Below, in pieces: positions 1-35,476 of a DNA stretch of 40,000 nt. The stretch is from assembly GCA_041228285.1 (NCBI GenBank), contig CP166133.1, forward strand, positions 1,853,380-1,893,379, in the 5' to 3' direction. The notes beneath the pieces were generated by a model, which was not told the origin of the DNA, searched no databases, and was given only the letters and a program-made list of their open reading frames with translations. The stretch is from Neisseriaceae bacterium CLB_ANTARCTIC_008 (GTDB lineage Bacteria; Pseudomonadota; Gammaproteobacteria; Burkholderiales; Neisseriaceae). Each line of letters begins with the position of its first letter. Within the stretch, counting starts at the first letter, position 1. The translations under genes were made by a program, and so were the position numbers.

Positions 1-80
1 TCAAGAAACAGCGCAGTATTGATTCAGCCATGGGCATGGCTGAGTCGTTTATGGGGTTCTTTAAGACCATTTGAATAGGT

Positions 81-113
81 ATGATATTTTGATATCATAT
101 CAGACATTATAAT
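81..113 (+). promoter_or_regulatory. candidate operator/promoter upstream of 134..886
   Basis: Perfect 7-bp inverted repeat ATGATAT-tttg-ATATCAT (81-98) followed by TATAAT (108-113), about 20 nt before the ATG at 134. Confidence 0.3.
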
Positions 114-133
114 CAACCAGGCTGCTATCAAAA

Positions 134-886
134 ATGAGCGAGTTCAGCGCAGAAGAGCAAGGCATCATTGATTTTTTTTTGGACCAATATCAAGAAAACA
201 GAGAATCAAACGAAACAACACAATGGCTCAGTAAAGATCTCAGTAAAATATGTGCCATCATTGTTGCTCCATCAGTTATTAATAAAGACACTTATGACCT
301 TACATTCATCGATCCAGAAAACAAATTTAAACAAAAAATTATTCATCAAATCAAAATTCGTATTGTCACTATTTACTCCACGTTAAAACGATTAGAGCAA
401 AAAGGATTAATTTTTACCAAACCAAGCATCACCTTTACTCGACTACAGAAAGAAAAGAAACAAGACCAAATAATTGACGGCATGTTTGATGAGATGTTTG
501 GGGTTTTTACAGAAATGAATCATGAGTTAGATTATATTTGCTCTATAATTATCCCCTCTGGCGCGCTTTTAGAACTAAAAAGAAATAAATATGTTTCCGC
601 AGATAAAATCGCGCATGAGAAACAAATTAAATATTTAAGACTTCAAGCAATTTTTGCATATTTCGCTTTAGGAATATCAATTATAGGACCAGCTTTCTAT
701 TCATTAAAGCCAACTGCCATCACAATCCATGACAAAACACCACCGTTACCCATGGCCATAAATTCAGAAAAAATTGATGCCTTAAACCAAGAGGTCATCC
801 GTCTTGAAGCTAAGGTCGAATCCCTTAAATCTGAGGCCGTCAAGATTCAGGCCAAGCTTTCCAAACCAGACCCAGAAACGAAATAA
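134..886 (+). CDS. hypothetical protein with hydrophobic segment and coiled-coil-like C-terminus
   Basis: 250-aa ORF in AT-rich DNA; hydrophobic stretch AIFAYFALGISIIGPAFY; heptad-like tail EKIDALNQEVIRLEAKVESLKSEAVKIQAKL; hairpin terminator immediately downstream. Confidence 0.55.
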   Translation: MSEFSAEEQGIIDFFLDQYQENRESNETTQWLSKDLSKICAIIVAPSVINKDTYDLTFIDPENKFKQKIIHQIKIRIVTIYSTLKRLEQKGLIFTKPSITFTRLQKEKKQDQIIDGMFDEMFGVFTEMNHELDYICSIIIPSGALLELKRNKYVSADKIAHEKQIKYLRLQAIFAYFALGISIIGPAFYSLKPTAITIHDKTPPLPMAINSEKIDALNQEVIRLEAKVESLKSEAVKIQAKLSKPDPETK

Positions 887-893
887 CAAAAAA

Positions 894-915
894 CCGCGGA
901 TCAGCGCGGCTTTTT
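894..915. terminator. bidirectional intrinsic terminator
   Basis: CCGCG-gatcag-CGCGG hairpin flanked by an A-run upstream and T5 downstream, between convergent ORFs. Confidence 0.6.
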
Positions 916-958
916 AAACTTTGCAACAAAAGAATAATCCAGATAACTACATTATCAA

Positions 959-2377
959 TCATGTGAACTTTATCAATGATAATGGGTAATGAAGTATTGA
1001 CTTACTATCATGACAATAATATGCCTGGTAAAACTCAAATTCTTTCCTTGAGTGCTCTATACATTTTTTTTCTATACACTTCACAACCTTGATCTTATCT
1101 TCTGTTGAAGTATTAATGCCAAATATTAGCCCATGAAGATCTTGAAACTCATAGGTCAAAGTTCTGTCCTCAGGACTAGATAAGTCACGAAACATGCTTG
1201 TCAGTATTAACCGATGCTCATTCTCATAGGCCCAATCTTTCGTTTTTTTAACTATATCTCTATAAAAGCTAGCCCAATATGTATCGCGCCAAGCATCTTC
1301 ATCATTCAATATTGCATTAGCACATATACTTTCTTCATCATTAGAAAAATACCATGTGGAAAGTAGGCCAGGATATGGCAATCTACCTAATGATCTGAAA
1401 AAATCAATCTCACCTGCACCATCAACATAATCAATAGGTCTAAACTGAAAGCTACTTCTCTCTGCATAGTTTACTCTTTGATCTGGGTTTTCTTTCCATC
1501 TCAGACTTAATAGACTAGAACCATCTTGGCCATCTTGCGCTTCATAAACCAAACAAACACCAGTATGATTTTTAGCATAATGCGCCCAAATCGATGAATT
1601 TGCACACTCTGTCATAAAGCAAGCCGTGTACCAGTCTGGATACATTAATTTTTGAATTTGCTCTACGTATAATTTCGGAAAATCCAAAAGCATATAACTT
1701 CTAATGCTTAAGTTATTCTTTAGCAAATTATATTTATGCATTAAAGCCTGCTGTTCTGACAAAAACATATAACCTTGAAGCATTTTAGGGCTAGATAATT
1801 TAAAGCTTTCCTCCGAATCAATCATTGCTTCGAAATTTTCAAAAAACTTACCATCCAAGATATGTTGAATACCCTTTAAGCTGGCTTCTATCTTACTACT
1901 GTCACCACCATTAAAATGACTCTCTAACACCCCTACAGCATAAGAATTAATTGTATTAATATATAAGAGTAGCTCGGATTTCCGTATCACCGTTGATCTG
2001 CTTGCTATTTTCTGAATCAAGGTATCAATATATTCATTATTTAAGAAAGTTTCCGATATTTTCTTAAAAGATTCAGCATGCTTAGTAGTTTGAAAATCAT
2101 CATCTTGCATTCCTAAAAAAACATTAATATCATTTCCAGTTAAAATAGTCTCGCTATATAAAACAACTTTTATGAAGTAATCCTCTAGACAACGAAAATA
2201 GTGCCGAAATAAATTTCGCCAAATGATATAGTCACCTTTCCAATAGATGTCTCGAAAACCTTCCATTGGATCATTCAAAGAGTCCGGAGCAGCAAAAAAA
2301 ATACTTTGCCTCTCTAATTCTTTATACTCTCCAAATAAATTATCAATACTTCGAAATCGATAGAATTTCTTACTCAT
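959..2377 (-). CDS. DUF2971-family protein (long form)
   Basis: N-terminus KFYRFRSIDNLFGEYKELERQSIFFAAPDSLNDPMEG matches the DUF2971 signature as I remember it (Y-[KR]-[YF]-R..., then F..p..fNDP.E). Visibly AT-rich. First ATG at 2377; the track's TTG start at 2389 is possible. Confidence 0.6.
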   Translation of the reverse strand: MSKKFYRFRSIDNLFGEYKELERQSIFFAAPDSLNDPMEGFRDIYWKGDYIIWRNLFRHYFRCLEDYFIKVVLYSETILTGNDINVFLGMQDDDFQTTKHAESFKKISETFLNNEYIDTLIQKIASRSTVIRKSELLLYINTINSYAVGVLESHFNGGDSSKIEASLKGIQHILDGKFFENFEAMIDSEESFKLSSPKMLQGYMFLSEQQALMHKYNLLKNNLSIRSYMLLDFPKLYVEQIQKLMYPDWYTACFMTECANSSIWAHYAKNHTGVCLVYEAQDGQDGSSLLSLRWKENPDQRVNYAERSSFQFRPIDYVDGAGEIDFFRSLGRLPYPGLLSTWYFSNDEESICANAILNDEDAWRDTYWASFYRDIVKKTKDWAYENEHRLILTSMFRDLSSPEDRTLTYEFQDLHGLIFGINTSTEDKIKVVKCIEKKCIEHSRKEFEFYQAYYCHDSKSILHYPLSLIKFT

Positions 2378-2481
2378 GTTGTGATCCAATAAAACACTTA
2401 TAACTTAATAATAAATTAACACTTTTTAGAATCACACAATATACCCGAATCATCATATAATTAATACAACATATACATAAC

Positions 2482-2504
2482 AAAAAAACCACCCGAAGGT
2501 GGCC
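2482..2504 (-). terminator. intrinsic terminator after antirepressor gene
   Basis: Minus strand reads GGCCACC-TTCG-GGTGG followed by T7. Confidence 0.7.
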
Positions 2505-2510
2505 TTTCAA

Positions 2511-3404
2511 TTAATTAGAAGCTAACTTTGCACTTACCGGCATATATAGAAAATCCTGTACCCTCTCCAGGCGCTGATGCGTACTCCGTAATAAGTGTCT
2601 CAAACCTGAATATTCCATCCAGCAACCGCTAGTATCATAGCCATGGCTTTCCAGCTGGCGCAGTAAGCTAGCTATTGGCACCTGCCCTCTATAACGCTCA
2701 CCGTAAAGATCAACTAAGCCTTTATACGTCAACGCCCTCTCCCCGAAGTCATCCTCTAAGATGCTTGCTGGGAATGGTCTCATATCTAACTCTAAGGGCT
2801 TTGTATTTGGCTCATTAAATAATGGGTGTTGGAAGTCGTCATCCATAACCTCTCCATCCAATGCTAAATCATAGGCATACTTAACAGCACTAGCCAATTG
2901 ATCGATAGTCAGCTCTTTTGATGACTCAACTCCAAAGTGGCTATTAACCATTCCATAAGCTGTTGGGTAGTTTATCTTGCGGCGGGCTACTAAAACATTC
3001 ACAGCGTCTTTTAAAGGTACTCGGTCAGTTGGTGTACTAAGCCGGCTTTCGATATTACTTTGCTCGCCACTCTTCTCAATGATGTCTAATACCCACCGCC
3101 GGAACTCTTTTGCTACTGATGTCTTTGCAAACATGGCCACTAAATGGCACCCTCTCAGTGAGAAAACTTTTGTAGTTTGATGACGTAACCCGTTGATTTC
3201 CCCGCTGAACGTCAATTTGACGTTCTGTGACATCGATCCTATGAACTCATCCTTGTTACGTTCATAAATCTTGTTCACAGAGTCCTGTCGAGCATAACCG
3301 AGTGCCTTGGCCAAGTCAGCAGATGTAATCCAAATTTGAGTTGTATCGCTAGGGTTATTTACAGCATTGAATGACACTTTGTTGAATGTTAATTTTGCGT
3401 TCAT
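2511..3404 (-). CDS. phage antirepressor (BRO-N / KilA-N-like N-terminal domain, Ant-type)
   Basis: N-terminal IWITSADLAKALGYARQDSVNKIYERNKDEF...VFSLRGCHLVAMFAKTSVAKEFRRWVLDIIE is the pattern of BRO-N/P22 Ant-type antirepressors; AAGGAG RBS before the ATG. Confidence 0.7.
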   Translation of the reverse strand: MNAKLTFNKVSFNAVNNPSDTTQIWITSADLAKALGYARQDSVNKIYERNKDEFIGSMSQNVKLTFSGEINGLRHQTTKVFSLRGCHLVAMFAKTSVAKEFRRWVLDIIEKSGEQSNIESRLSTPTDRVPLKDAVNVLVARRKINYPTAYGMVNSHFGVESSKELTIDQLASAVKYAYDLALDGEVMDDDFQHPLFNEPNTKPLELDMRPFPASILEDDFGERALTYKGLVDLYGERYRGQVPIASLLRQLESHGYDTSGCWMEYSGLRHLLRSTHQRLERVQDFLYMPVSAKLASN

Positions 3405-3445
3405 GATGACTCCTTACTTTATCTACGAGATAAGCCCAAATGGGC

Positions 3446-3544
3446 GGCCAAGAGGTTCGTAGTCCCAGTAAGTAGGATGGGCGTATTCCCTGACAAGTCA
3501 GGTCTTGTATTAGCCACCCTCTCGGCCATAAGAAATCTTTTTTT
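3446..3544. other. structured region upstream of the antirepressor gene (leader or antisense RNA candidate)
   Basis: Long-range pairing GGCC-a-AGAGG (3446-3455) with CCTCT-c-GGCC (3518-3527) encloses CCTGA-caag-TCAGG (3489-3502); T7 run at 3538-3544 on the plus strand. Confidence 0.25.
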
Positions 3545-3673
3545 CAACGAAAGGAATCTATGGACGCAAAAAAATCACACTATCGTGGTGAATAAACGCT
3601 ACTGGAGGCTACGACACCTCGTGCAGCAATAGTACTAATTTAACTGATGATAGTCAAGGGACGAATATCCCAT

Positions 3674-6313
3674 CTATGTACCCAATATAATTTTCTGAAT
3701 AATAGGTGAAAATAAATGTTTCTTTAACTCAAAACACTTCAACGAAAATGGATCTATGTCACACATTTTTCTATATATGGTTGCAATAGATTGTTGATTT
3801 TGAAAACTTTTAGTTTTATCTAGTAATATATTAATCATTACATTATTCAAAATAACTCTATTTTCTTTTTCTAATCTTTTAAATAAATAGAATAAAGATA
3901 CTGCTAAGTTTCTATACTCTTCAACTGTTTCGAGTTGAAACAGTAATTGATAGAGTTCTTCATTATTAATTTTTTTATTATTAACCACAGAGCCAATTAA
4001 TAAGCTATAAAAATAATAAATATTACCTTCCCCATTTTTCCCATTACCCGTGGGGTTTTCATCACAAGCGGATAGTATCTCCTGCACTTTTTCATAAAAA
4101 ATAATGCATAAGTCTACTGGTAACTCCGAGCATAGCAAGCCATATAATGGACCATACAAAACATCAACATCCTTATCTGACTTAATAGGCTGACTTTGAA
4201 ATATTTTATCTAATAAGCTGGACATAATTTGGCCAACCAGTTTAAAGTCATTATAATCTTGTTGAATCAAATGCTTAATGACCCTTGAAAAAACTCTATG
4301 ATATGAATCTATTATCCACTCTCTAGTCTCTTTAGAGGTCCCCATTAAATCAATAGTTTTTTCTAGCTGAGTAACTAACTCAATACTTGTCAGTCCATCA
4401 ACCTTATCTGTAGCTGCATAATATTGATACCATTTTTGCAAAGATAGTGACTCACAAAAAGTCAAATCGTTATATTCGCCTTGTAACCTATAAAAATAGA
4501 ATGCATTAAATAATTTATCCCCGCGCTCTTTCTGAATAAAATCGATTAATAGCTCCCGTAGATTAAAATAAAATTCAATTCTTTTTAAATCAGTTAACGT
4601 TATAACCATTTCCTCAATTATAGAACCAATAATTCTTTGTGATGGTAGTAAATCTAATCTATCAATTTCTATGATAATAAAATCAATATCGTTTTTTAAT
4701 ATAGACTTTTGAGTTAAAGTCAAAACTGTAAATAATTTAAGAAATTGAGGCTCAGAGGACCATCTAGCGTGTCGAAGTGGAAATTTTTTATTTAAATAAA
4801 CTTGTTTAACTTTATCTTTGAGGGTAGATATATGATCAATCTCTAACTTATGGCTATTATCTATTAAAAATTCTATTAACTCGATACTACAACGATCCCC
4901 GACTAGATTAATAAATTTAACAGGAAGTGAGTCATCAATGTTGTAATTGTTATAAATAGAAACTATCATTTTATAAGTTTCTAGTTTCATATAAGGCTGA
5001 AACAAAAAATAAGTATAAAGCATATTTAAAACAAAAGTGTCAAGATCCTTATAATTACTCCACTCTTGTACTTCTAATTCAAGAATAGTACTTTGAATCA
5101 TACTTTCAATATATTTCGGGATATTATCTAGTAAGCCATATGAGCATGTATCTATTATTGACTTACAAAATATTTGAATTGCAGGCCCTAAAATTCTATT
5201 GCCATACCGACCATAAGTTATAATATTATTTTTTTTATGATGTATGTCTTTCCATACTTCATCAAAAATATACTTATAATCAGGTTCAATATCATCTGGT
5301 AGTTGCCAAGGGCCTAAACAAGATTTATATTTTTCGGCCCAATCCTCTACTTGTTTCTCACCCACATTATTATTCACAGAATATAGCCACATTTTATTTG
5401 ATATTAACTTCACATAAGTAGGATACTTATCATAAAATTGACTAAACATCTCTTGAGCAAGCTTATCTGCACTCTTGAACTGTCTTTTAAACAAATAAAC
5501 ATTTAGCAAACACGTTTTTAACTGTACTAATCGATTTAAATCTTTATCTTTTTTATTTTTATTATCCTTTAAATACTGATCTATAGCTTTATTTATATAC
5601 CTTTGGGCTTCATCATAGGCTCCTCTACATATATGTAAGGCAATTGTCACAGATTCTGTTTTTCCTAAAATACCTTTTAATTTGGCTATGGACTTATTCT
5701 CAAAAGCTACATTATAAAAATGAAAATAATAATCAATTTTTTCATCAGTTGTTTTAAACGTTTCGAAGGATAGACCTTTAGTAAACTTCTCGTAATGAAT
5801 ATTTTTGCTCTCTATGCTTTTAGAGCGATGTATCATTGATGTTAAACACACTGAAATTAATAAATGTACCTGTTGTTTAGATGGAAGAGTATTTTCATCT
5901 AAACTAATCTTATGCATACCGGCTAATTTATGTAGATTATTATTAGCAAACACTCGAGTTTGATAAACTTCATTTAAGTCATTAGCAATAAAGTCCTCTT
6001 TACCTTCCCACAAAAAAGAAGTTTTATTTAATTTATTATTTATATTACCTAATATTTCTTGATAGATAGCTAAATCTTTATGCAGTTCACCCTTCCAATA
6101 TTTACTATCTCCAAGCTTATGAAACTTATCAATCCCAAGCCTTTCTAAAGTAAAGTCCACTAGTAGCCTTATAGAACCATGACAAGCCCCAAAATGTTGA
6201 TTTTTATATAAGTCATTTACTTCAATGCAAATCTCAAGCAATCGCTCTGCCCCAAAAAGATTACTTTCTATAGAGCACTTAATTTCATTTATCAACGATG
6301 TAGAAATAAACAC
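3674..6313 (-). CDS. large hypothetical alpha-helical-repeat protein (879 aa)
   Basis: Uninterrupted 879-aa ORF in very AT-rich DNA; GTG start with AAGGGA RBS. No P-loop, nuclease or other catalytic motif recognised by eye. N-terminal ~150 aa faintly DUF4145-like (…VFANNNLHKLAGMH). Only 49 nt and no hairpin separate it from the upstream gene. Confidence 0.6.
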   Translation of the reverse strand: MFISTSLINEIKCSIESNLFGAERLLEICIEVNDLYKNQHFGACHGSIRLLVDFTLERLGIDKFHKLGDSKYWKGELHKDLAIYQEILGNINNKLNKTSFLWEGKEDFIANDLNEVYQTRVFANNNLHKLAGMHKISLDENTLPSKQQVHLLISVCLTSMIHRSKSIESKNIHYEKFTKGLSFETFKTTDEKIDYYFHFYNVAFENKSIAKLKGILGKTESVTIALHICRGAYDEAQRYINKAIDQYLKDNKNKKDKDLNRLVQLKTCLLNVYLFKRQFKSADKLAQEMFSQFYDKYPTYVKLISNKMWLYSVNNNVGEKQVEDWAEKYKSCLGPWQLPDDIEPDYKYIFDEVWKDIHHKKNNIITYGRYGNRILGPAIQIFCKSIIDTCSYGLLDNIPKYIESMIQSTILELEVQEWSNYKDLDTFVLNMLYTYFLFQPYMKLETYKMIVSIYNNYNIDDSLPVKFINLVGDRCSIELIEFLIDNSHKLEIDHISTLKDKVKQVYLNKKFPLRHARWSSEPQFLKLFTVLTLTQKSILKNDIDFIIIEIDRLDLLPSQRIIGSIIEEMVITLTDLKRIEFYFNLRELLIDFIQKERGDKLFNAFYFYRLQGEYNDLTFCESLSLQKWYQYYAATDKVDGLTSIELVTQLEKTIDLMGTSKETREWIIDSYHRVFSRVIKHLIQQDYNDFKLVGQIMSSLLDKIFQSQPIKSDKDVDVLYGPLYGLLCSELPVDLCIIFYEKVQEILSACDENPTGNGKNGEGNIYYFYSLLIGSVVNNKKINNEELYQLLFQLETVEEYRNLAVSLFYLFKRLEKENRVILNNVMINILLDKTKSFQNQQSIATIYRKMCDIDPFSLKCFELKKHLFSPIIQKIILGT

Positions 6314-6362
6314 ATGATCCCTTACTATATAAAAATTAAAAAAAGCTTCACTTAGACACTAC

Positions 6363-7034
6363 TTAAAACAAATTATCAATCTCAGCCCCATCTCTACCGG
6401 GGTCTTTATTCTCATACTTAGGATGTGGTTTTTCATCTAGCACATTAGCCTTATTCTTGCCTGACTCACGACTTTTCACTGCATTTCTATCAACGGTATT
6501 ACTAGCTGAGCCCACATTAGATGAACGAGTACGATTACTTTCAGTCGCTGCCTCAGAAGTACTCTTAGGGCTGCTAGCTGTTGATGCTTCATCCTTATTG
6601 CTCTTCGAGCATTGAGAAATAATAGCGAAAAAGAGGAATACCCAGAAAATAGTTTTAATCAGCTTCCAGAACGTACTTTTCTTTTTAACCGGTTCTTCCT
6701 GGTAATATCCAAGTACCCTGTCTTTTTCCAGTTCAAACTCTGATTCAGACAGAACACCTTTATCATACAACTTAGATAATCGTGTTAACTCATTACTAAC
6801 TGAGGCCCTAGTAGCTCTTGGTCCTGATGGAGTAGCCCTACTTTTATTGCCACTTAACTTGGTTCTATATGATAAGCCTGTGCCAGGTATACCTGCATTA
6901 AGATGAGTCCCTCTCTTCCCAATATTAACGCTAGCGCCTCGCCCACCGATCGTTACACTAGTGAAGCCTTTCTTACCTAGATTCAACTTCAGCCCTTTTC
7001 CTAGCTTAATTGATTTTCTAAACCTGAATCCCAT
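6363..7034 (-). CDS. DUF4236 + SHOCT domain membrane protein
   Basis: MGFRFRKSIKLGKGLKLNLGKKGFTSVTIGGRGASVNIGKRG is the DUF4236 N-terminal signature. LSKLYDKGVLSESEFELEKDRVLG is SHOCT-like. One TM segment (IFWVFLFFAIISQC), then a Ser/Thr-rich tail. Confidence 0.7.
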   Translation of the reverse strand: MGFRFRKSIKLGKGLKLNLGKKGFTSVTIGGRGASVNIGKRGTHLNAGIPGTGLSYRTKLSGNKSRATPSGPRATRASVSNELTRLSKLYDKGVLSESEFELEKDRVLGYYQEEPVKKKSTFWKLIKTIFWVFLFFAIISQCSKSNKDEASTASSPKSTSEAATESNRTRSSNVGSASNTVDRNAVKSRESGKNKANVLDEKPHPKYENKDPGRDGAEIDNLF

Positions 7035-7164
7035 TACCTATCTCCCACGCAATGAATTTTTAATCACAATAATTTTTATTATATGATTATAACGTATTTA
7101 TATTGGGTACAGTGCTAGACACTACATGAAATAGTTAAGTATTCTATGAATAATCAGAGCAAAT

Positions 7165-7187
7165 AAAAAAGCCCAGCAATACTGGGC
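7165..7187 (-). terminator. intrinsic terminator after 7240..7695
   Basis: GCCCAG-caata-CTGGGC hairpin; a T-run follows on the minus strand. Confidence 0.65.
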
Positions 7188-7239
7188 TTTGTTTGAGATA
7201 TTACTCGGTAGCAGACATATTCCCCATACAATTTGGGGA

Positions 7240-7695
7240 TTAAGCATCCATCACGGTAACCTGCCCATCCCAAACCGTTTCCCAACTGTTATCCTCACCT
7301 TTATGGTGCTGCACATATGGAGCTAAATAAATTAAGTCGTGCGCAAAAATCTTTTTCTCTAACTCTAATAATTTAACCAGTGGGCAATATATTAAAATTA
7401 CAACATCCTTATCATGAATTAAATGGCTAGAAAGGTCTTTTGCCACTACGTAAGCAATTTCAACGCCAGCTAAAACATTTGAACCTTTAAGTAGCCTTTT
7501 AAAAAAACCATCATCTAAACCGGCTATACTTTCTGCTTTAAGCAATTCATTATTCGGAAAGTTATCTTTTAAAGTTGTTGAAAAAACAACTCTACCACCA
7601 GCATTTTGAGCTAAAAATAGAGCATGATTGATGATTCCAATCATTTCGTGATCATCAATGCTTTTACAGTAGTCCTTATACAAATATCGGTTCAT
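7240..7695 (-). CDS. hypothetical protein (151 aa)
   Basis: ORF with GGGGA RBS, AT-rich, bracketed by terminators on both sides (single-gene unit). Confidence 0.5.
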   Translation of the reverse strand: MNRYLYKDYCKSIDDHEMIGIINHALFLAQNAGGRVVFSTTLKDNFPNNELLKAESIAGLDDGFFKRLLKGSNVLAGVEIAYVVAKDLSSHLIHDKDVVILIYCPLVKLLELEKKIFAHDLIYLAPYVQHHKGEDNSWETVWDGQVTVMDA

Positions 7696-7794
7696 ATATA
7701 CATCCCCATAGAGCCTTATAGTGCCGCCCGTTGATAGTAATTTATAGCTTATCTTGGCTTATTACGCAAACATAACTATCGCAACAATTAGACG

Positions 7795-7825
7795 TAAAAA
7801 AACCACCTGGGCGGTGGCTTTTTTT
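7795..7825. terminator. bidirectional intrinsic terminator
   Basis: A8-CCACC-tgggc-GGTGG-C-T7. Confidence 0.7.
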
Positions 7826-7834
7826 AGCGCTAGG

Positions 7835-8485
7835 CTAACGTAAATCTTCTTCTTTTAACGGGTTGGCTTCCCATTTGTTCGCCAACATTTCCAAATCCAG
7901 AAATAAGGTTTTCTTTCCGGTTTTTACCCTCAACCGGTCCACAGGACCTGACATGACAGACCACAGCCTAAGAATATTTGAACAATGTACACGCTTATAA
8001 AGCGCCTCATCAATTACTTTGGCGTTTATAGCACTAGCAAAAAACTCACTTCTATTCAGCACTAACATAGAGCTTGTCTTTACTTCTTTCATTAAATCTG
8101 ATTCTAAATCTTCTAAATTCTGCTCAAACAAACTAGTTAATGACTGATGAGTGTTTTTATGTTTCTTATTATAATCATACACCTGCATCTTTGCCTCATA
8201 AAAAACGGTATCTTGATAATCATTCAAAATAGCACTTAATGTCGCAACTTCACAAGATGTACGTCTATTCGACCTCATCGTGATAATAGCTATCACTGCA
8301 GTTATAAAAATAATAACTAGTTGAGCCAGACTAAGCCACTCCCCTCTCTCCCAAGAGGCTAGGTGTAACTTAGCTAAGTAAGACTGAAGAAAAGTTAAAC
8401 TTGATAAAAAGAAGGCGGCTAGTGCCAAAACTGACACCCATCCGCCTACTTTAACCTGTTTAACAAAACTTTTCTTAGTCATCAT
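7835..8485 (-). CDS. two-TM membrane protein, DUF4760-like
   Basis: Two N-terminal hydrophobic helices (WVSVLALAAFFLSSLTF; LAQLVIIFITAVIAIITM), then NRR and a helical domain with LNRSEFFASAINAKVIDEALY. The architecture resembles DUF4760 as I recall it. GAGGGA RBS. Confidence 0.5.
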   Translation of the reverse strand: MMTKKSFVKQVKVGGWVSVLALAAFFLSSLTFLQSYLAKLHLASWERGEWLSLAQLVIIFITAVIAIITMRSNRRTSCEVATLSAILNDYQDTVFYEAKMQVYDYNKKHKNTHQSLTSLFEQNLEDLESDLMKEVKTSSMLVLNRSEFFASAINAKVIDEALYKRVHCSNILRLWSVMSGPVDRLRVKTGKKTLFLDLEMLANKWEANPLKEEDLR

Positions 8486-8591
8486 ATCCCTCAGAAACTA
8501 ATTGAATGTTTAATTTTCTCGTCATGAATTTCATATTAATACTCCCTTACTCTATTATTGCAAAACTACCTTAAGTAGAATGTATAGACAC

Positions 8592-8619
8592 AAAAAAACT
8601 TAACAAGTTGCTTGTTAAG
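8592..8619 (-). terminator. intrinsic terminator in the 8486-9073 gap
   Basis: Minus strand reads CTTAACAAG-caa-CTTGTTAAG followed by T7. Confidence 0.65.
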
Positions 8620-9073
8620 CTGAGTGCATATACATGCTATAAAAAGAACGACGTAAGCTACGACGCTTCGAAATCACTTATGTAATTACCTTTTAGCATT
8701 GCTACTTACTATGCAGTAATAGTAAGACAAATTCGCCAATATTACCAGCCGAAATATACACGAGAACCCAGAGTTTACTGGCTTTTTGCCCTGTTTTATG
8801 AAGAAAGCCAACTGTAAGCATTACGGGGTCTGCCCTGTAGCCAATGGCTAATTTTGACACTTGTCACCAAATTTGTATCAAAAAAACTACTGAACTATGG
8901 TCAGACTACCCATAAACATTGAGTTCTCGCTAAAACTGACCTAGAAATTAGAGCATTTTTAGCCCCGCTGGCCCAATAACACACGATGAACATTTCTCTT
9001 TAAGTCATACTCGACCCAGCAGCTCAAGCCACTGGATCGAGCCAATATCCTCACACAGCAACAAACTACCTAC

Positions 9074-11553
<2,480 letters not shown>

Positions 11554-11554
<1 letters not shown>

Positions 11555-12039
11555 TACGCACCACCTTCTTTTAGGCGGACAATCTCTGTATCAGCTTCGG
11601 CGATCAGCTGATCTAGCTCTTCCAATTCACTGGCAAAAGCTTCTTCTTTGCGTTTGGTTGTTGATTTAAGACCCTTGGGCATCACCACTCTTTTACGAGA
11701 CAAGGCCTTCTGAAAGCGGGTCGAATTGGCTTCGGCCGACTTGATGATTTCTGCGATTGATTTACGGACGTCGTCCTGCTCTTTGATGGGCAGGATTTTA
11801 CCGTTCAGGCGGACTTGATAGATGTCACCGGTGGACTTGACGCGCAACACCAGCTGCTGACTATCGGCCAAGGCAATACAAATTTCACGGTATGAAATAC
11901 TGTTTTCGCGCTTGGTTTTATCGCCCACCCATGATGAGGCGATTTCGGCGCCCGCGCGCTTGAATACAGACACCAGTTTTTTAGGTGCTGTTTTAGGATT
12001 TGGGATCAACTCGTCCCAAGAAAATAGATCGTTCGACAT
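11554..12039 (-). CDS. hypothetical protein (161 aa from second Met)
   Basis: ORF between TerL and the 826-aa gene. The track's first ATG lies inside a hairpin/T-run, so the second Met (12039) is preferred. C-terminal coiled-coil-like tail. Confidence 0.5.
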
Positions 12040-12071
12040 AAAAAAGCCCACTGTGCGTTAACAATGGGCTT
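12040..12071 (-). terminator. hairpin plus T-run between terL and the next gene
   Basis: AAGCCCA (12044-12050) pairs with TGGGCTT (12065-12071); T6 follows on the minus strand. Near-copy of the hairpin at 15481-15510. Confidence 0.45.
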
Positions 12072-25433: not shown

Positions 25434-25949
25434 TTATTTATAGGCGCTTCCATGAGCCATATAGTGGTCCTTCACTATTTGGTGAAAGCAATTATGCAAC
25501 TCATAGTAATCGCTTTGTTTAATTTGAAATATAACTTTTCTTTTTGAGAGAGTAAGAGTAACCATATCAGTGTTATCAAATTTTATCGGCTCAAAATTCT
25601 CATACAGATAGAGCATTACTACGTTCACCTCATCCTCAGACAGGTCAAGAAAAACTTTCTTCGCCTGAGCTTCTGCTGACTTGATGCGCTTTTTTTCGAT
25701 GCGGGAAGATAGTGATTTCCCTAACCAACTAAAAGCAAGAACGGTTAAGTCAACCAACGCATAAGATATAGCGAAGGTTAGGGCCAGCGTAGTTAATGAC
25801 CCTGACCCAAACGGAAGGCTTCGTGGCACCAGATCGAGCCATGACTCTGGAGCAAGAAGGTAGAGAACTAGAGTTAATAAAATCGTGTACATCATTTTCC
25901 CCAAGGGGACTTTATTAAAAATAATTTCAATTAGCCTAATAAAATCCAT
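25434..25949 (-). CDS. membrane protein, SieB-like (superinfection exclusion candidate)
   Basis: Two N-terminal TM helices, then a soluble domain; ~170 aa, AT-rich, opposite in orientation to the surrounding operon. Size, topology and location are as for lambdoid SieB. Sequence assignment unverified. Confidence 0.45.
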   Translation of the reverse strand: MDFIRLIEIIFNKVPLGKMMYTILLTLVLYLLAPESWLDLVPRSLPFGSGSLTTLALTFAISYALVDLTVLAFSWLGKSLSSRIEKKRIKSAEAQAKKVFLDLSEDEVNVVMLYLYENFEPIKFDNTDMVTLTLSKRKVIFQIKQSDYYELHNCFHQIVKDHYMAHGSAYK

Positions 25950-34031: not shown

Positions 34032-34355
34032 ATGATTACTTTTTCACTAGAAGAGGCATCCCCCATTCTTGGTGCGCATCCTGAGACATTACGCAGAAAG
34101 TGTAAATCAGGTGAGATTAGAGCATTTAAATCTGGTCGCGCCTGGCGAATTGCCAAAGAAGCTCTTGCAGATTACATCAAAGACAAAGAAAATGAACGCT
34201 TGCAGGAAGTGCGGGCGGAAGGGAGTAAGAAATGCCAATCCGATTACGTAACGGAATTTACTATATCGACATTGTTACCTCGTCAGGGAACCGTATTAGA
34301 CGATCTTCTGGCACCAGCGACAAGAAAAAGGCCCAAGAGCTGCACGATAAACTAA
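34032..34355 (+). CDS. xis: excisionase-family HTH protein
   Basis: LEEASPILGAHPETLRRKCKSGEIRAFKSGRAWRIAKEALADYI (MerR/excisionase-type HTH); GGAG RBS; its 3' end overlaps int by 124 nt in another frame. Confidence 0.6.
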   Translation: MITFSLEEASPILGAHPETLRRKCKSGEIRAFKSGRAWRIAKEALADYIKDKENERLQEVRAEGSKKCQSDYVTEFTISTLLPRQGTVLDDLLAPATRKRPKSCTIN

Positions 34356-35347
34356 AGCATGAACTATGGGCCGTCGAAAGACTGGGCGAAAAACCTAAAA
34401 GAACATGGGATGAAGCCTGTGTGCGCTTTCTTCAAGAAAAAGCACATAAAAAAAGCCTTGAAGACGATAAGCAAAAAATGCGCTTATTGGTACAGCTTCG
34501 AGGAATGCTTTTAACTGATATTACCCGTGATTTTATTATGGGTACTGTATCGAAACTCAGCTGTGGAAACTCTACCAAAAACCGCTACCTCACGTTGATC
34601 CGTACAGTCTTAAATCTGTGCGCTGGCGAATGGGAATGGATTGATAGAGCGCCCAAGTTGACTTTATACAAAGAGCCTAAAAAGCGGATTCGCTGGATTA
34701 CTCGCGATGAGGCTAACAGGCTTATATCCGTTTTACACCGTGTCTATGCTGATTTAGCCGAGTTTAGCTTTATGACCGGCCTACGCCAGTCTAATGCCCT
34801 TACTTTGGAATGGTCTCAAGTCGATTTAGAAAGACAGGTCGCATGGATCCACCCAGACCAGGCCAAAGCAGGAAAACCGATAGGTGTGCCGCTGAACGAA
34901 AACGCCATGAATGTTCTACGGCGCCGGTTTGCCATTCGAAAAATGCACCAAATATTTGTCTCAAACCTACCTAGAGCTAGCCAGCTCAAAATGGACTTTA
35001 CTAGATATGTCTTTGTAAGCGACATAACTAAACGACCATTGACCAGCATTAGCTCAGAAATCTGGAAGGCGGCACTCGATGAGGCAGGTATTAAAGATTT
35101 TCGTTGGCACGACATTAGGCACACCTGGGCAAGCTGGTTAGTCCAAAGTGGCGTTGGCTTACTTGAGTTAAAAGAAATGGGTGGCTGGGAAAGTGTCGAG
35201 ATGGTCCAGAAGTATGCTCACTTAGCACCACAACATTTACACAAAAACGCTGTTCTATTAGAGACCCCACGAGCCATGGGTTTGGCACAAGATGTCACAA
35301 ATCTGGCACACGTAAAAAATCCCCTGCTACCTTGGACAGTAAACTAG
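34232..35347 (+). CDS. int: tyrosine integrase
   Basis: N-terminal RNGIYYIDI…RRSSGTSDKKKA; catalytic residues in MTGLRQSN, WHDIRHTWASW and VQKYAHL; adjacent to a tRNA 3' end. Confidence 0.92.
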   Translation: MPIRLRNGIYYIDIVTSSGNRIRRSSGTSDKKKAQELHDKLKHELWAVERLGEKPKRTWDEACVRFLQEKAHKKSLEDDKQKMRLLVQLRGMLLTDITRDFIMGTVSKLSCGNSTKNRYLTLIRTVLNLCAGEWEWIDRAPKLTLYKEPKKRIRWITRDEANRLISVLHRVYADLAEFSFMTGLRQSNALTLEWSQVDLERQVAWIHPDQAKAGKPIGVPLNENAMNVLRRRFAIRKMHQIFVSNLPRASQLKMDFTRYVFVSDITKRPLTSISSEIWKAALDEAGIKDFRWHDIRHTWASWLVQSGVGLLELKEMGGWESVEMVQKYAHLAPQHLHKNAVLLETPRAMGLAQDVTNLAHVKNPLLPWTVN

Positions 35348-35385: not shown

Positions 35386-35476
35386 TGGCGGAGGCGGTGA
35401 GATTCGAACTCACGGAAGGGTATAAGCCTTCGACGGTTTTCAAGACCGTTGCATTCAACCGCTCTGCCACGCCTCC
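35386..35476 (-). tRNA. tRNA-Ser (anticodon UGA), CCA encoded
   Basis: Reverse complement GGAGGCGTGGCAGAGCGGTTGAATGCAACGGTCTTGAAAACCGTCGAAGGCTTATACCCTTCCGTGAGTTCGAATCTCACCGCCTCCGCCA. Anticodon stem-loop ACGGT-CTTGAAA-ACCGT; long variable arm; 91 nt. Confidence 0.92.

Follow-up and report, generated by a model that had tools for sequence, protein, structure and literature searches.

Two adjacent genes in a prophage of Neisseriaceae bacterium CLB008

We analysed two neighbouring minus-strand genes in a 40,000-nt stretch of contig CP166133.1 of Neisseriaceae bacterium CLB008 (CLB_ANTARCTIC_008), here called the window, to whose positions all coordinates refer unless another contig is named. Open reading frame (ORF) calling delimits a small gene of 223 amino acids (aa) with an ATG start (6363-7034) and a large gene of 879 aa with a GTG start (3674-6313). 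An earlier note on this DNA had described the two as co-oriented, 49 nt apart and with no hairpin between them, and the ORF coordinates, a terminator scan and folding agree with this description. The gap (6314..6362) carries an AAGGGA ribosome-binding site 4 nt ahead of the GTG, contains no terminator-like site according to the scan, and forms no stable hairpin, its minimum free energy of -8.7 kcal/mol being weaker than that of 180 of 200 shuffles. Ahead of the small gene, a 10-pair stem followed by a T-run (7190..7168, called by the terminator scan and visible in the sequence) is the strong intrinsic terminator of the upstream 151-aa gene, and a new transcription unit that includes both genes thus plausibly begins there. 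The region upstream of the small gene (7035..7111) holds a GGGAGA ribosome-binding site and a perfect TATAAT (7091..7086), but reading the sequence revealed no convincing -35 element; we place the putative promoter of the small gene at this TATAAT, a site that the consensus promoter scan did not call. The same type of scan returned no promoter-like site for the large gene in 6313-6500. Both genes are likely carried on one transcript in CLB008, which is the sole link between them.

The pair had been thought to share a strikingly AT-rich composition, which is wrong. The large gene has a GC content of 28.6% (22.8% at third codon positions, GC3) and the small gene one of 40.8% (GC3 33.5%), 12 points apart, the latter being near that of the neighbouring antirepressor gene (43.5% GC); the phage backbone has 48-53%. 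Nor is AT-richness peculiar to the pair, as the low-GC island in which it lies extends over about 80-8900 and at least seven genes.

The small protein has the DUF4236 domain, SHOCT motif, single transmembrane (TM) helix and Ser/Thr-rich tail that had been read in its sequence, with SHOCT as a borderline match. DUF4236 (PF14020) scores 76.6 bits against a cut-off of 27 (E 2e-21), residues 3-57 corresponding to profile positions 1-55 of 55. SHOCT (PF09851) is matched over the full profile length at E 7e-6 and 26.1 bits, below the Pfam cut-off of 27; the SHOCT-like helix pair (residues 82-108) is also listed in the precomputed annotation of the protein collection, and the segment RAS..N.L..L...G.L...E of this region is kept across the small-protein subfamily (alignment A3). 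The N-terminal part is strongly basic (net charge +13), the TM helix spans about residues 125-143, and the low-complexity tail contains 23% Ser+Thr and ends in KP..E.K..D.LF-COOH, which is kept in the same alignment. According to the positive-inside rule, the predicted topology is N-in with the tail directed outward. The DUF4236 protein search yielded 1014 homologues, and the nearest relatives (35-46% identity) have the same whole architecture; the small protein belongs to a phage-borne DUF4236 subfamily.

To follow the pair beyond CLB008, we retrieved small-gene relatives from 80 viral DUF4236 loci and 8 metagenome loci, together with 5-8 kb of flanking sequence if the contig was long enough. 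The 80 viral and 5 of the metagenome loci were searched with a large-protein profile (hmmsearch --max), and the other 3 were assessed by their called genes. No relative of the large protein was detected at the 80 viral and 5 metagenome loci, and none was among the called genes of the 3 further ones. Over 88 fetched loci, the sole matches of hmmsearch --max were the one homologue of the large protein itself (L006 and L007; described below), and a DUF4236 gene was absent near this homologue on both its Logan contig and its metagenome-assembled genome (MAG). With no co-occurrence of DUF4236-SHOCT genes and the large protein at about 90 loci and with a homologue that is solitary, the pair is therefore not conserved as neighbours elsewhere.

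CLB008 also encodes a paralogue of the small protein (XDZ50200.1, P0003; 80% identical) outside the window, about 30 genes away as judged from the accession numbers XDZ50200.1 and XDZ50230.1, which by analogy with the phage loci L008 and L009 may belong to the tail module of this prophage. Protein searches found no paralogue of the large protein in the CLB008 genome. The two-gene system postulated in the earlier note, a large sensor with a small membrane partner, is thus not borne out, given the missing co-occurrence, the lone homologue, the partnerless paralogue and the 12-point difference in GC.

What lies directly downstream (2-11 nt) of the DUF4236 gene varies among the nearest small-gene relatives. 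The next gene encodes 135/136 aa in L001, L002 and L103, 326 aa in L005 and LprI in L104 and L105, and L009 has no downstream gene within about 570 nt. The position of the DUF4236 gene also differs by phage; it follows the Nin region in L001, L005 and L103, the tape measure gene and DUF4431 in L008 and L009, and the terminase/DarA genes in the CLB008 window. In all three phages with downstream cargo that were checked (L001, L005, L009), the DUF4236 gene has a GC content somewhat below that of the backbone, and that of the subsequent cargo is equally low or still lower; the GC pattern at the small gene in the window is the same.

The relatives carried further cargo. A HipA_2 and DUF3037 pair that matches the PADLOC candidates PDC-M66A/B lies near the small-gene relative in L001 (6571-8117), and the genes directly 3' of the DUF4236 gene in L104 (1421-1795) and L105 (964-1329) belong to the lysozyme-inhibitor family LprI. 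An 824-aa protein encoded upstream of the DUF4236 gene in L008 was considered as a relative of the large protein and rejected as not related; by its position and resemblance to L009, it is probably a tape-measure protein.

The perfect 14-nt sequence TGTACCCAATATAA occurs once at 3677-3690 (plus strand), where it shares bases with the stop codon of the large gene and with the codons just before it, and once as the opposite arm of an inverted repeat at 7098-7111 (minus strand), 6 nt upstream of the TATAAT. The two arms bracket exactly the putative promoter region and both genes, a placement at both ends that arose in 0 of 300 simulations; the observation was made post hoc. Extra copies of the repeat were not found, nor was there enrichment at 3 mismatches, and a role as repressor operator was rejected on this ground. 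The repeat may mark the boundary of a cassette, form an operator pair or have arisen by chance. A 10-nt direct repeat upstream of both genes (GTAGTGTCTA) was discarded, since a repeat of this kind is expected by chance in 9 kb of AT-rich DNA.

The large protein, its only relative and its N-terminal motif

A stop codon is expected every 11 codons in DNA of this composition, and the other five frames across the large ORF yield at most 65 aa. The large ORF is not a chance frame, because the probability of 879 stop-free codons is ~1e-36 and because a full-length homologue with 24% identity exists (E 9e-41; HMMER search of 1.84 billion cluster representatives). This homologue shares the first residues of the large protein, which supports the annotated GTG start. 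It was the one relative, a single cluster, in the HMMER search, and its two sources are a 3-kb Logan contig and a Desulfovibrionaceae MAG. The gene in the MAG is solitary, has 30-38% GC in a chromosome of 50-58% GC and is flanked by genes for a HAD hydrolase and a GNAT protein. Scans of genomes, metagenomes and viral contigs added no relative to the known one, tblastn gave no phage or plasmid matches, and a word-indexed search with single sequence and profile matched the large protein only to itself. As judged from these searches, the family consists of two lineages only, in two bacterial phyla, and this is the one unusual property of the locus.

The large protein had been said to lack a recognisable catalytic domain, and the arrangement of the pair to match no named system, and both statements held. 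No family match was obtained in Pfam, NCBIfam, PADLOC or PHROGs, and no PDB match was obtained by phmmer and profile searches; homology to a known structural or housekeeping family was also not found. PADLOC-DB 2.0 (2023) contains no family that matches the small or the large protein at E <= 0.1; at E <= 10 the N-terminal fragments match nothing and the homologue matches only Cas11b (E 2.7). A candidate system (PDC-S31) is matched only by the neighbouring DUF2971 gene. Domain searches in windows of ~250 aa produced sub-threshold noise and weak TPR matches only.

The large protein has no TM helices (0) and is predicted to be soluble and nearly all-helical, in models of very low confidence. AlphaFold reached a pLDDT of 39 for the full length, and AlphaFold2 one of 48.5 for residues 1-175 with a two-sequence alignment; Foldseek with the latter model gave a best E-value of 1.8 against the PDB, a meaningless result. 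Of the all-alpha, TPR-like fold that had been proposed, the helical part agrees with these models. For the TPR part there are just sub-threshold matches of the homologue at about residues 232-286 (TPR_8 E 0.02, TPR-S E 0.007), and neither the large protein nor the homologue has a Pfam TPR-family match above the cut-off.

The best-kept part between the two lineages is the N-terminal region at residues about 24-165 (5819..6244; alignments A1 and A2), where invariant residues and hhalign comparison point to a candidate DUF4145/HEPN-like domain. DUF4145 is a divergent HEPN RNase domain (PMC3710099), and its residues R146 and H154 are essential in the RAZR defence protein (PMC13017515). The large protein contains the motif R120-V-F-A-N124-N-N-L-H128...H134-K-I-S-L-D139-E-N141 (5891..5956) and the MAG homologue RLFGNNILH...HKIILDIN, R, N, H, I, L, D and N being the same in both. 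The shared form, R-x2-[G/A]-N-x3-H...I-x-L-D-x-N, aligns to the DUF4145 block 'vRv.GN.aVH-pG-idl.Dn' that holds the catalytic R146 and H154 of RAZR. In the alignment, R120 and H128, which flank N124, fall on the Arg and His of 11 annotated DUF4145 proteins and of PDB entry 9y9c, a 'DUF4145 domain-containing protein' of 24 chains whose CRIVGNQAVH block places R146/H154 as in PMC13017515.

A profile of six invented bait sequences (A4) was used only to retrieve 9y9c, and all later tests were made with real sequences; the synthetic consensus bait for DUF4145 was abandoned, as it failed against plasmids and the fetched loci and ranked too low against the PDB. With a fragment of 9y9c, tblastn detected 24 annotated DUF4145 proteins on plasmids, eleven of which were fetched and aligned. 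Comparison of the N-terminal alignment of the large protein with these 11 proteins by hhalign gave P-values of 5.8e-4 to 1e-3 at a probability of 21-29%. The score of 28.5 compares with a maximum of 23.2 in 200 column shuffles, with 11-16 for seven non-overlapping windows of the large protein and with 14.4 for the reversed sequence. We therefore regard the likeness to DUF4145 as weak, specific at the level of the motif and short of confident homology. The faint DUF4145 character that had been noticed in the N terminus is thus weakly supported by the motif and by an hhalign score above all controls, but not by HMMER or structure prediction, which show nothing of it.

The low-GC island and the prophage around the pair

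The island comprises a 250-aa gene, a DUF2971 gene, a Bro-N antirepressor gene, the small and the large gene, a 151-aa orphan and a DUF4760 gene. Successive genes have GC contents of 37.0, 34.6, 40.8, 28.6, 43.5 and 33.5%, and terminators lie at 8621..8597, 7815..7802, 7190..7168, 2508..2483 and 916..887, so that most genes have their own. As these terminators and GC steps show, the island is built of separate units. All of the following genes are on the minus strand. The 216-aa DUF4760 membrane protein (7835-8485; phrog_2284, E 5e-35) and the 151-aa orphan (7240-7695; no family match) both have low GC and their own terminator. The 476-aa DUF2971 protein (959-2389) matches the PADLOC candidate PDC-S31 (E 7e-22) and phrog_1762 and is followed by the terminator at 916..887, and the Bro-N antirepressor gene (2511-3404) ends at that of 2508..2483.

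The interval from the antirepressor gene to the large gene contains, both on the minus strand, a promoter-like site (3657..3629) and a match to sRNA-Xcc1 (RF02221; 3438-3527) over its full length, which scores 50.3 bits (gathering score 53; E 8e-7). Together with an antirepressor gene that ends in a terminator, these features resemble a separate 'small RNA plus ant' unit, similar to the immI-type 'antisense RNA plus ant' unit of P1. The sRNA-Xcc1 family is also found upstream of an ORF6N protein in APSE phages. Two independent contigs (L090 and L091) of Logan sample ERR15976311, whose strain is the same or nearly identical, break off within the antirepressor gene, at window positions of about 2553 and 2890, which suggests a second antirepressor copy elsewhere in the genome.

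To the right of the island follow the genes for the polyvalent protein, TerL, TerS, NinB, an O-like protein, CI, SieB, ERF and SSB, then a methyltransferase gene, the integrase gene (34232-35347, plus strand) at the right end of the prophage and the adjoining tRNA-Ser(TGA) (35386-35476, minus strand), beyond which host genes begin. The polyvalent protein (826 aa; 9074-11554, minus strand) combines InPase, DarA_N and LPD3 with a long (Pro-Glu)n run, and another DarA_N protein, 165 aa long (11554-12051, minus strand), is encoded ahead of it. These two DarA_N proteins are anti-restriction-type head proteins and come directly after TerL with no portal gene between. The superinfection-exclusion gene sieB (25434-25949, minus strand) is part of the early region. 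The left side is covered by a Logan contig, which matches window positions 1-2553 at 100% identity and runs on into tail sheath, tail tube and PmgG-like genes of ~50% GC. The island thus lies within a tRNA-Ser-integrated myovirus prophage that has P1-like modules, its place being between the packaging/DarA module and the tail module. The integrase and tRNA-Ser, the TerS, TerL and DarA genes and the tail sheath, tail tube and PmgG-like genes all corroborate the view that the pair was horizontally acquired and resides inside a prophage. A search with the polyvalent protein recovered no relatives of the CLB008 prophage.

Possible functions of the two genes

We favour the explanation that the two genes are independent prophage morons that stand side by side in the AT-rich island of a myovirus prophage and are probably co-transcribed, and we give it about an even chance of being right. 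The locus has the features of prophage morons: it is flanked by prophage genes on both sides, has 29-41% GC in surroundings of 48-53%, is preceded by a terminator and occupies a slot that is variable in relatives. We also count in favour the DUF2971 gene with its PADLOC candidate match in the same island and the sieB and DarA genes in the same prophage. The small gene, which recurs in unrelated phages at varying positions, always at the edge of low-GC cargo and with a changing next gene, would encode a protein that acts alone at the envelope of the lysogen, in superinfection exclusion or envelope modification. It is like prophage morons and superinfection exclusion (Sie) proteins such as SieB in being a single-pass membrane protein encoded in low-GC cargo behind an upstream terminator at varying phage positions. 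It is unlike the Sie families in that it has no significant similarity to them, its PHROG matches being only compositional (E 0.003-0.05), and in that its DUF4236 domain is without known function.

The large gene would have been acquired separately and more recently, and as its only other occurrence is a single-gene islet, it most likely encodes a stand-alone protein. This protein could be a single-protein abortive-infection (Abi) factor with an N-terminal DUF4145-type HEPN RNase and R120/H128 as candidate catalytic residues, in which ~700 residues of helical repeats would sense or be gated by a phage component. This mechanism is drawn by analogy with RAZR and HEPN Abi proteins, and we offer it tentatively, as the likeliest single mechanism but one that is less likely than not; a defence function of the two genes and RNase activity are likewise putative. 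The analogy with RAZR (PD-T7-4) and other DUF4145 HEPN RNases (PF13643) extends to the two motif parts R-x2-[G/A]-N-x3-H and I-x-L-D-x-N with a subsequent hydrophobic helix in both lineages, to the occurrence as a single gene on mobile DNA, and to the putative helical repeats, as proteins in which DUF4145 is fused to Sel1 (helical) repeats have been described (PMC3710099). The large protein differs from these RNases in having ~700 additional residues, no zinc finger and no PF13643 or PADLOC match, in the N-terminal placement of the domain and in a spacing that is longer by ~30 residues from the first to the last motif block and by 6 residues behind the His.

Several observations weigh against this explanation of the locus. 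The tight spacing, the shared upstream terminator, the lack of an internal promoter and the bracketing repeat would also fit a functional unit, and as the large protein has just two lineages, the absence of pairing is a single comparison on that side. The MAG homologue does not lie in a defence island; its neighbours are ordinary metabolic and chemotaxis genes. The hhalign match to DUF4145 covers just 21-35 columns at a probability <30%, HMMER found no match to Pfam DUF4145 (PF13643, CL0291) at E <= 10 with full proteins or N-terminal fragments of either lineage, and the 2023 version of PADLOC was likewise without a match for the large protein. The AlphaFold models, with their pLDDT values of 39 and 48.5, are unusable, and Foldseek yields nothing on a HEPN fold.

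Alternatively, the large protein could be a helical scaffold without enzymatic activity, or a factor for interaction with the host, for example in lysogenic conversion or anti-defence; R..N...H would then be structural or coincidental, and there would be no defence role. In favour of this, no library detects a catalytic domain in the large protein, the HEPN match is short and of low probability, the same prophage encodes counter-defence proteins (DarA_N, polyvalent protein), and the homologue is surrounded by ordinary metabolic and chemotaxis genes. However, the motif is invariant at an overall identity of 24% and coincides with the catalytic residues of DUF4145 beyond any control, and AT-rich single-gene islets are typical of defence or toxin cargo. 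We consider a scaffold rather unlikely. The large protein can also be compared with TPR-S/TPR conflict-system sensors (PF20308). Similar are the helical-repeat region behind an N-terminal domain and the TPR-S match of the homologue (E 0.007), but the large protein of the window has no such match, all matches are below the cut-off, and an NTPase or companion domain is lacking.

A lineage-specific two-component system, in which the DUF4236-SHOCT protein anchors, gates or is the effector for a large cytosolic sensor or HEPN-like protein and both travel as one mobile cassette, is an unlikely explanation. It would account for the 49-nt gap with no hairpin, the terminator directly upstream of the pair, the missing promoter-like site for the large gene in 6313-6500 and the perfect 14-nt inverted repeat around the promoter region and both genes (0/300 simulations), and membrane-associated DUF4145-HEPN proteins do exist (PMC3710099). 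However, the pairing is absent at about 90 loci with small-gene relatives, the large-protein homologue stands alone, the small-protein paralogue in CLB008 lacks a large partner, the two genes differ by 12 points in GC, and unrelated genes fill the slot after the DUF4236 gene in close relatives. Defence systems that pair a membrane protein with a large cytosolic one in two genes are known, for example Kiwa with KwaA and KwaB. The locus is superficially like these in that the gene of a small TM protein lies directly upstream of that of a large soluble protein on mobile DNA, but neither protein has a PADLOC model, and the conserved pairing that defines such systems is absent.

More speculatively still, DUF4236-SHOCT-TM with its D-x-L-F end might be a reusable phage membrane adaptor that is set before an exchangeable cargo gene (136 aa, 326 aa, LprI or 879 aa) and localises or gates its product, with the repeat marking the cassette and the 879-aa protein founding a very rare family of membrane-tethered DUF4145-type RNase sensors; we think this improbable. 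That the large ORF is a functionless foreign gene, decaying or silenced, leaving the small gene as the one that matters, would agree with its 28.6% GC, as in targets of xenogeneic silencing, its GTG start with short ribosome-binding-site spacing and its near-orphan status, but is hardly credible for an intact frame of 879 codons (P ~1e-36) conserved over its full length, N terminus included, with a homologue from another phylum.

Adjacency and tight spacing in a prophage cargo island are no evidence for a multi-gene system. The small DUF4236 gene is a landmark beside a cargo slot that changes between phages. Should the HEPN interpretation fail, the locus would be one among many uncharacterised prophage morons. 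The large-protein family is extremely rare, with two lineages among 15 billion proteins whose copies are both AT-rich single-gene insertions, which makes it a clear case of orphan cargo that has travelled far. If the HEPN interpretation is true, the large protein would be a fusion of a large helical sensor with a highly divergent DUF4145 RNase, the RAZR-type family would gain a new architecture, and the gene would be a defence gene missed by current defence-finders.

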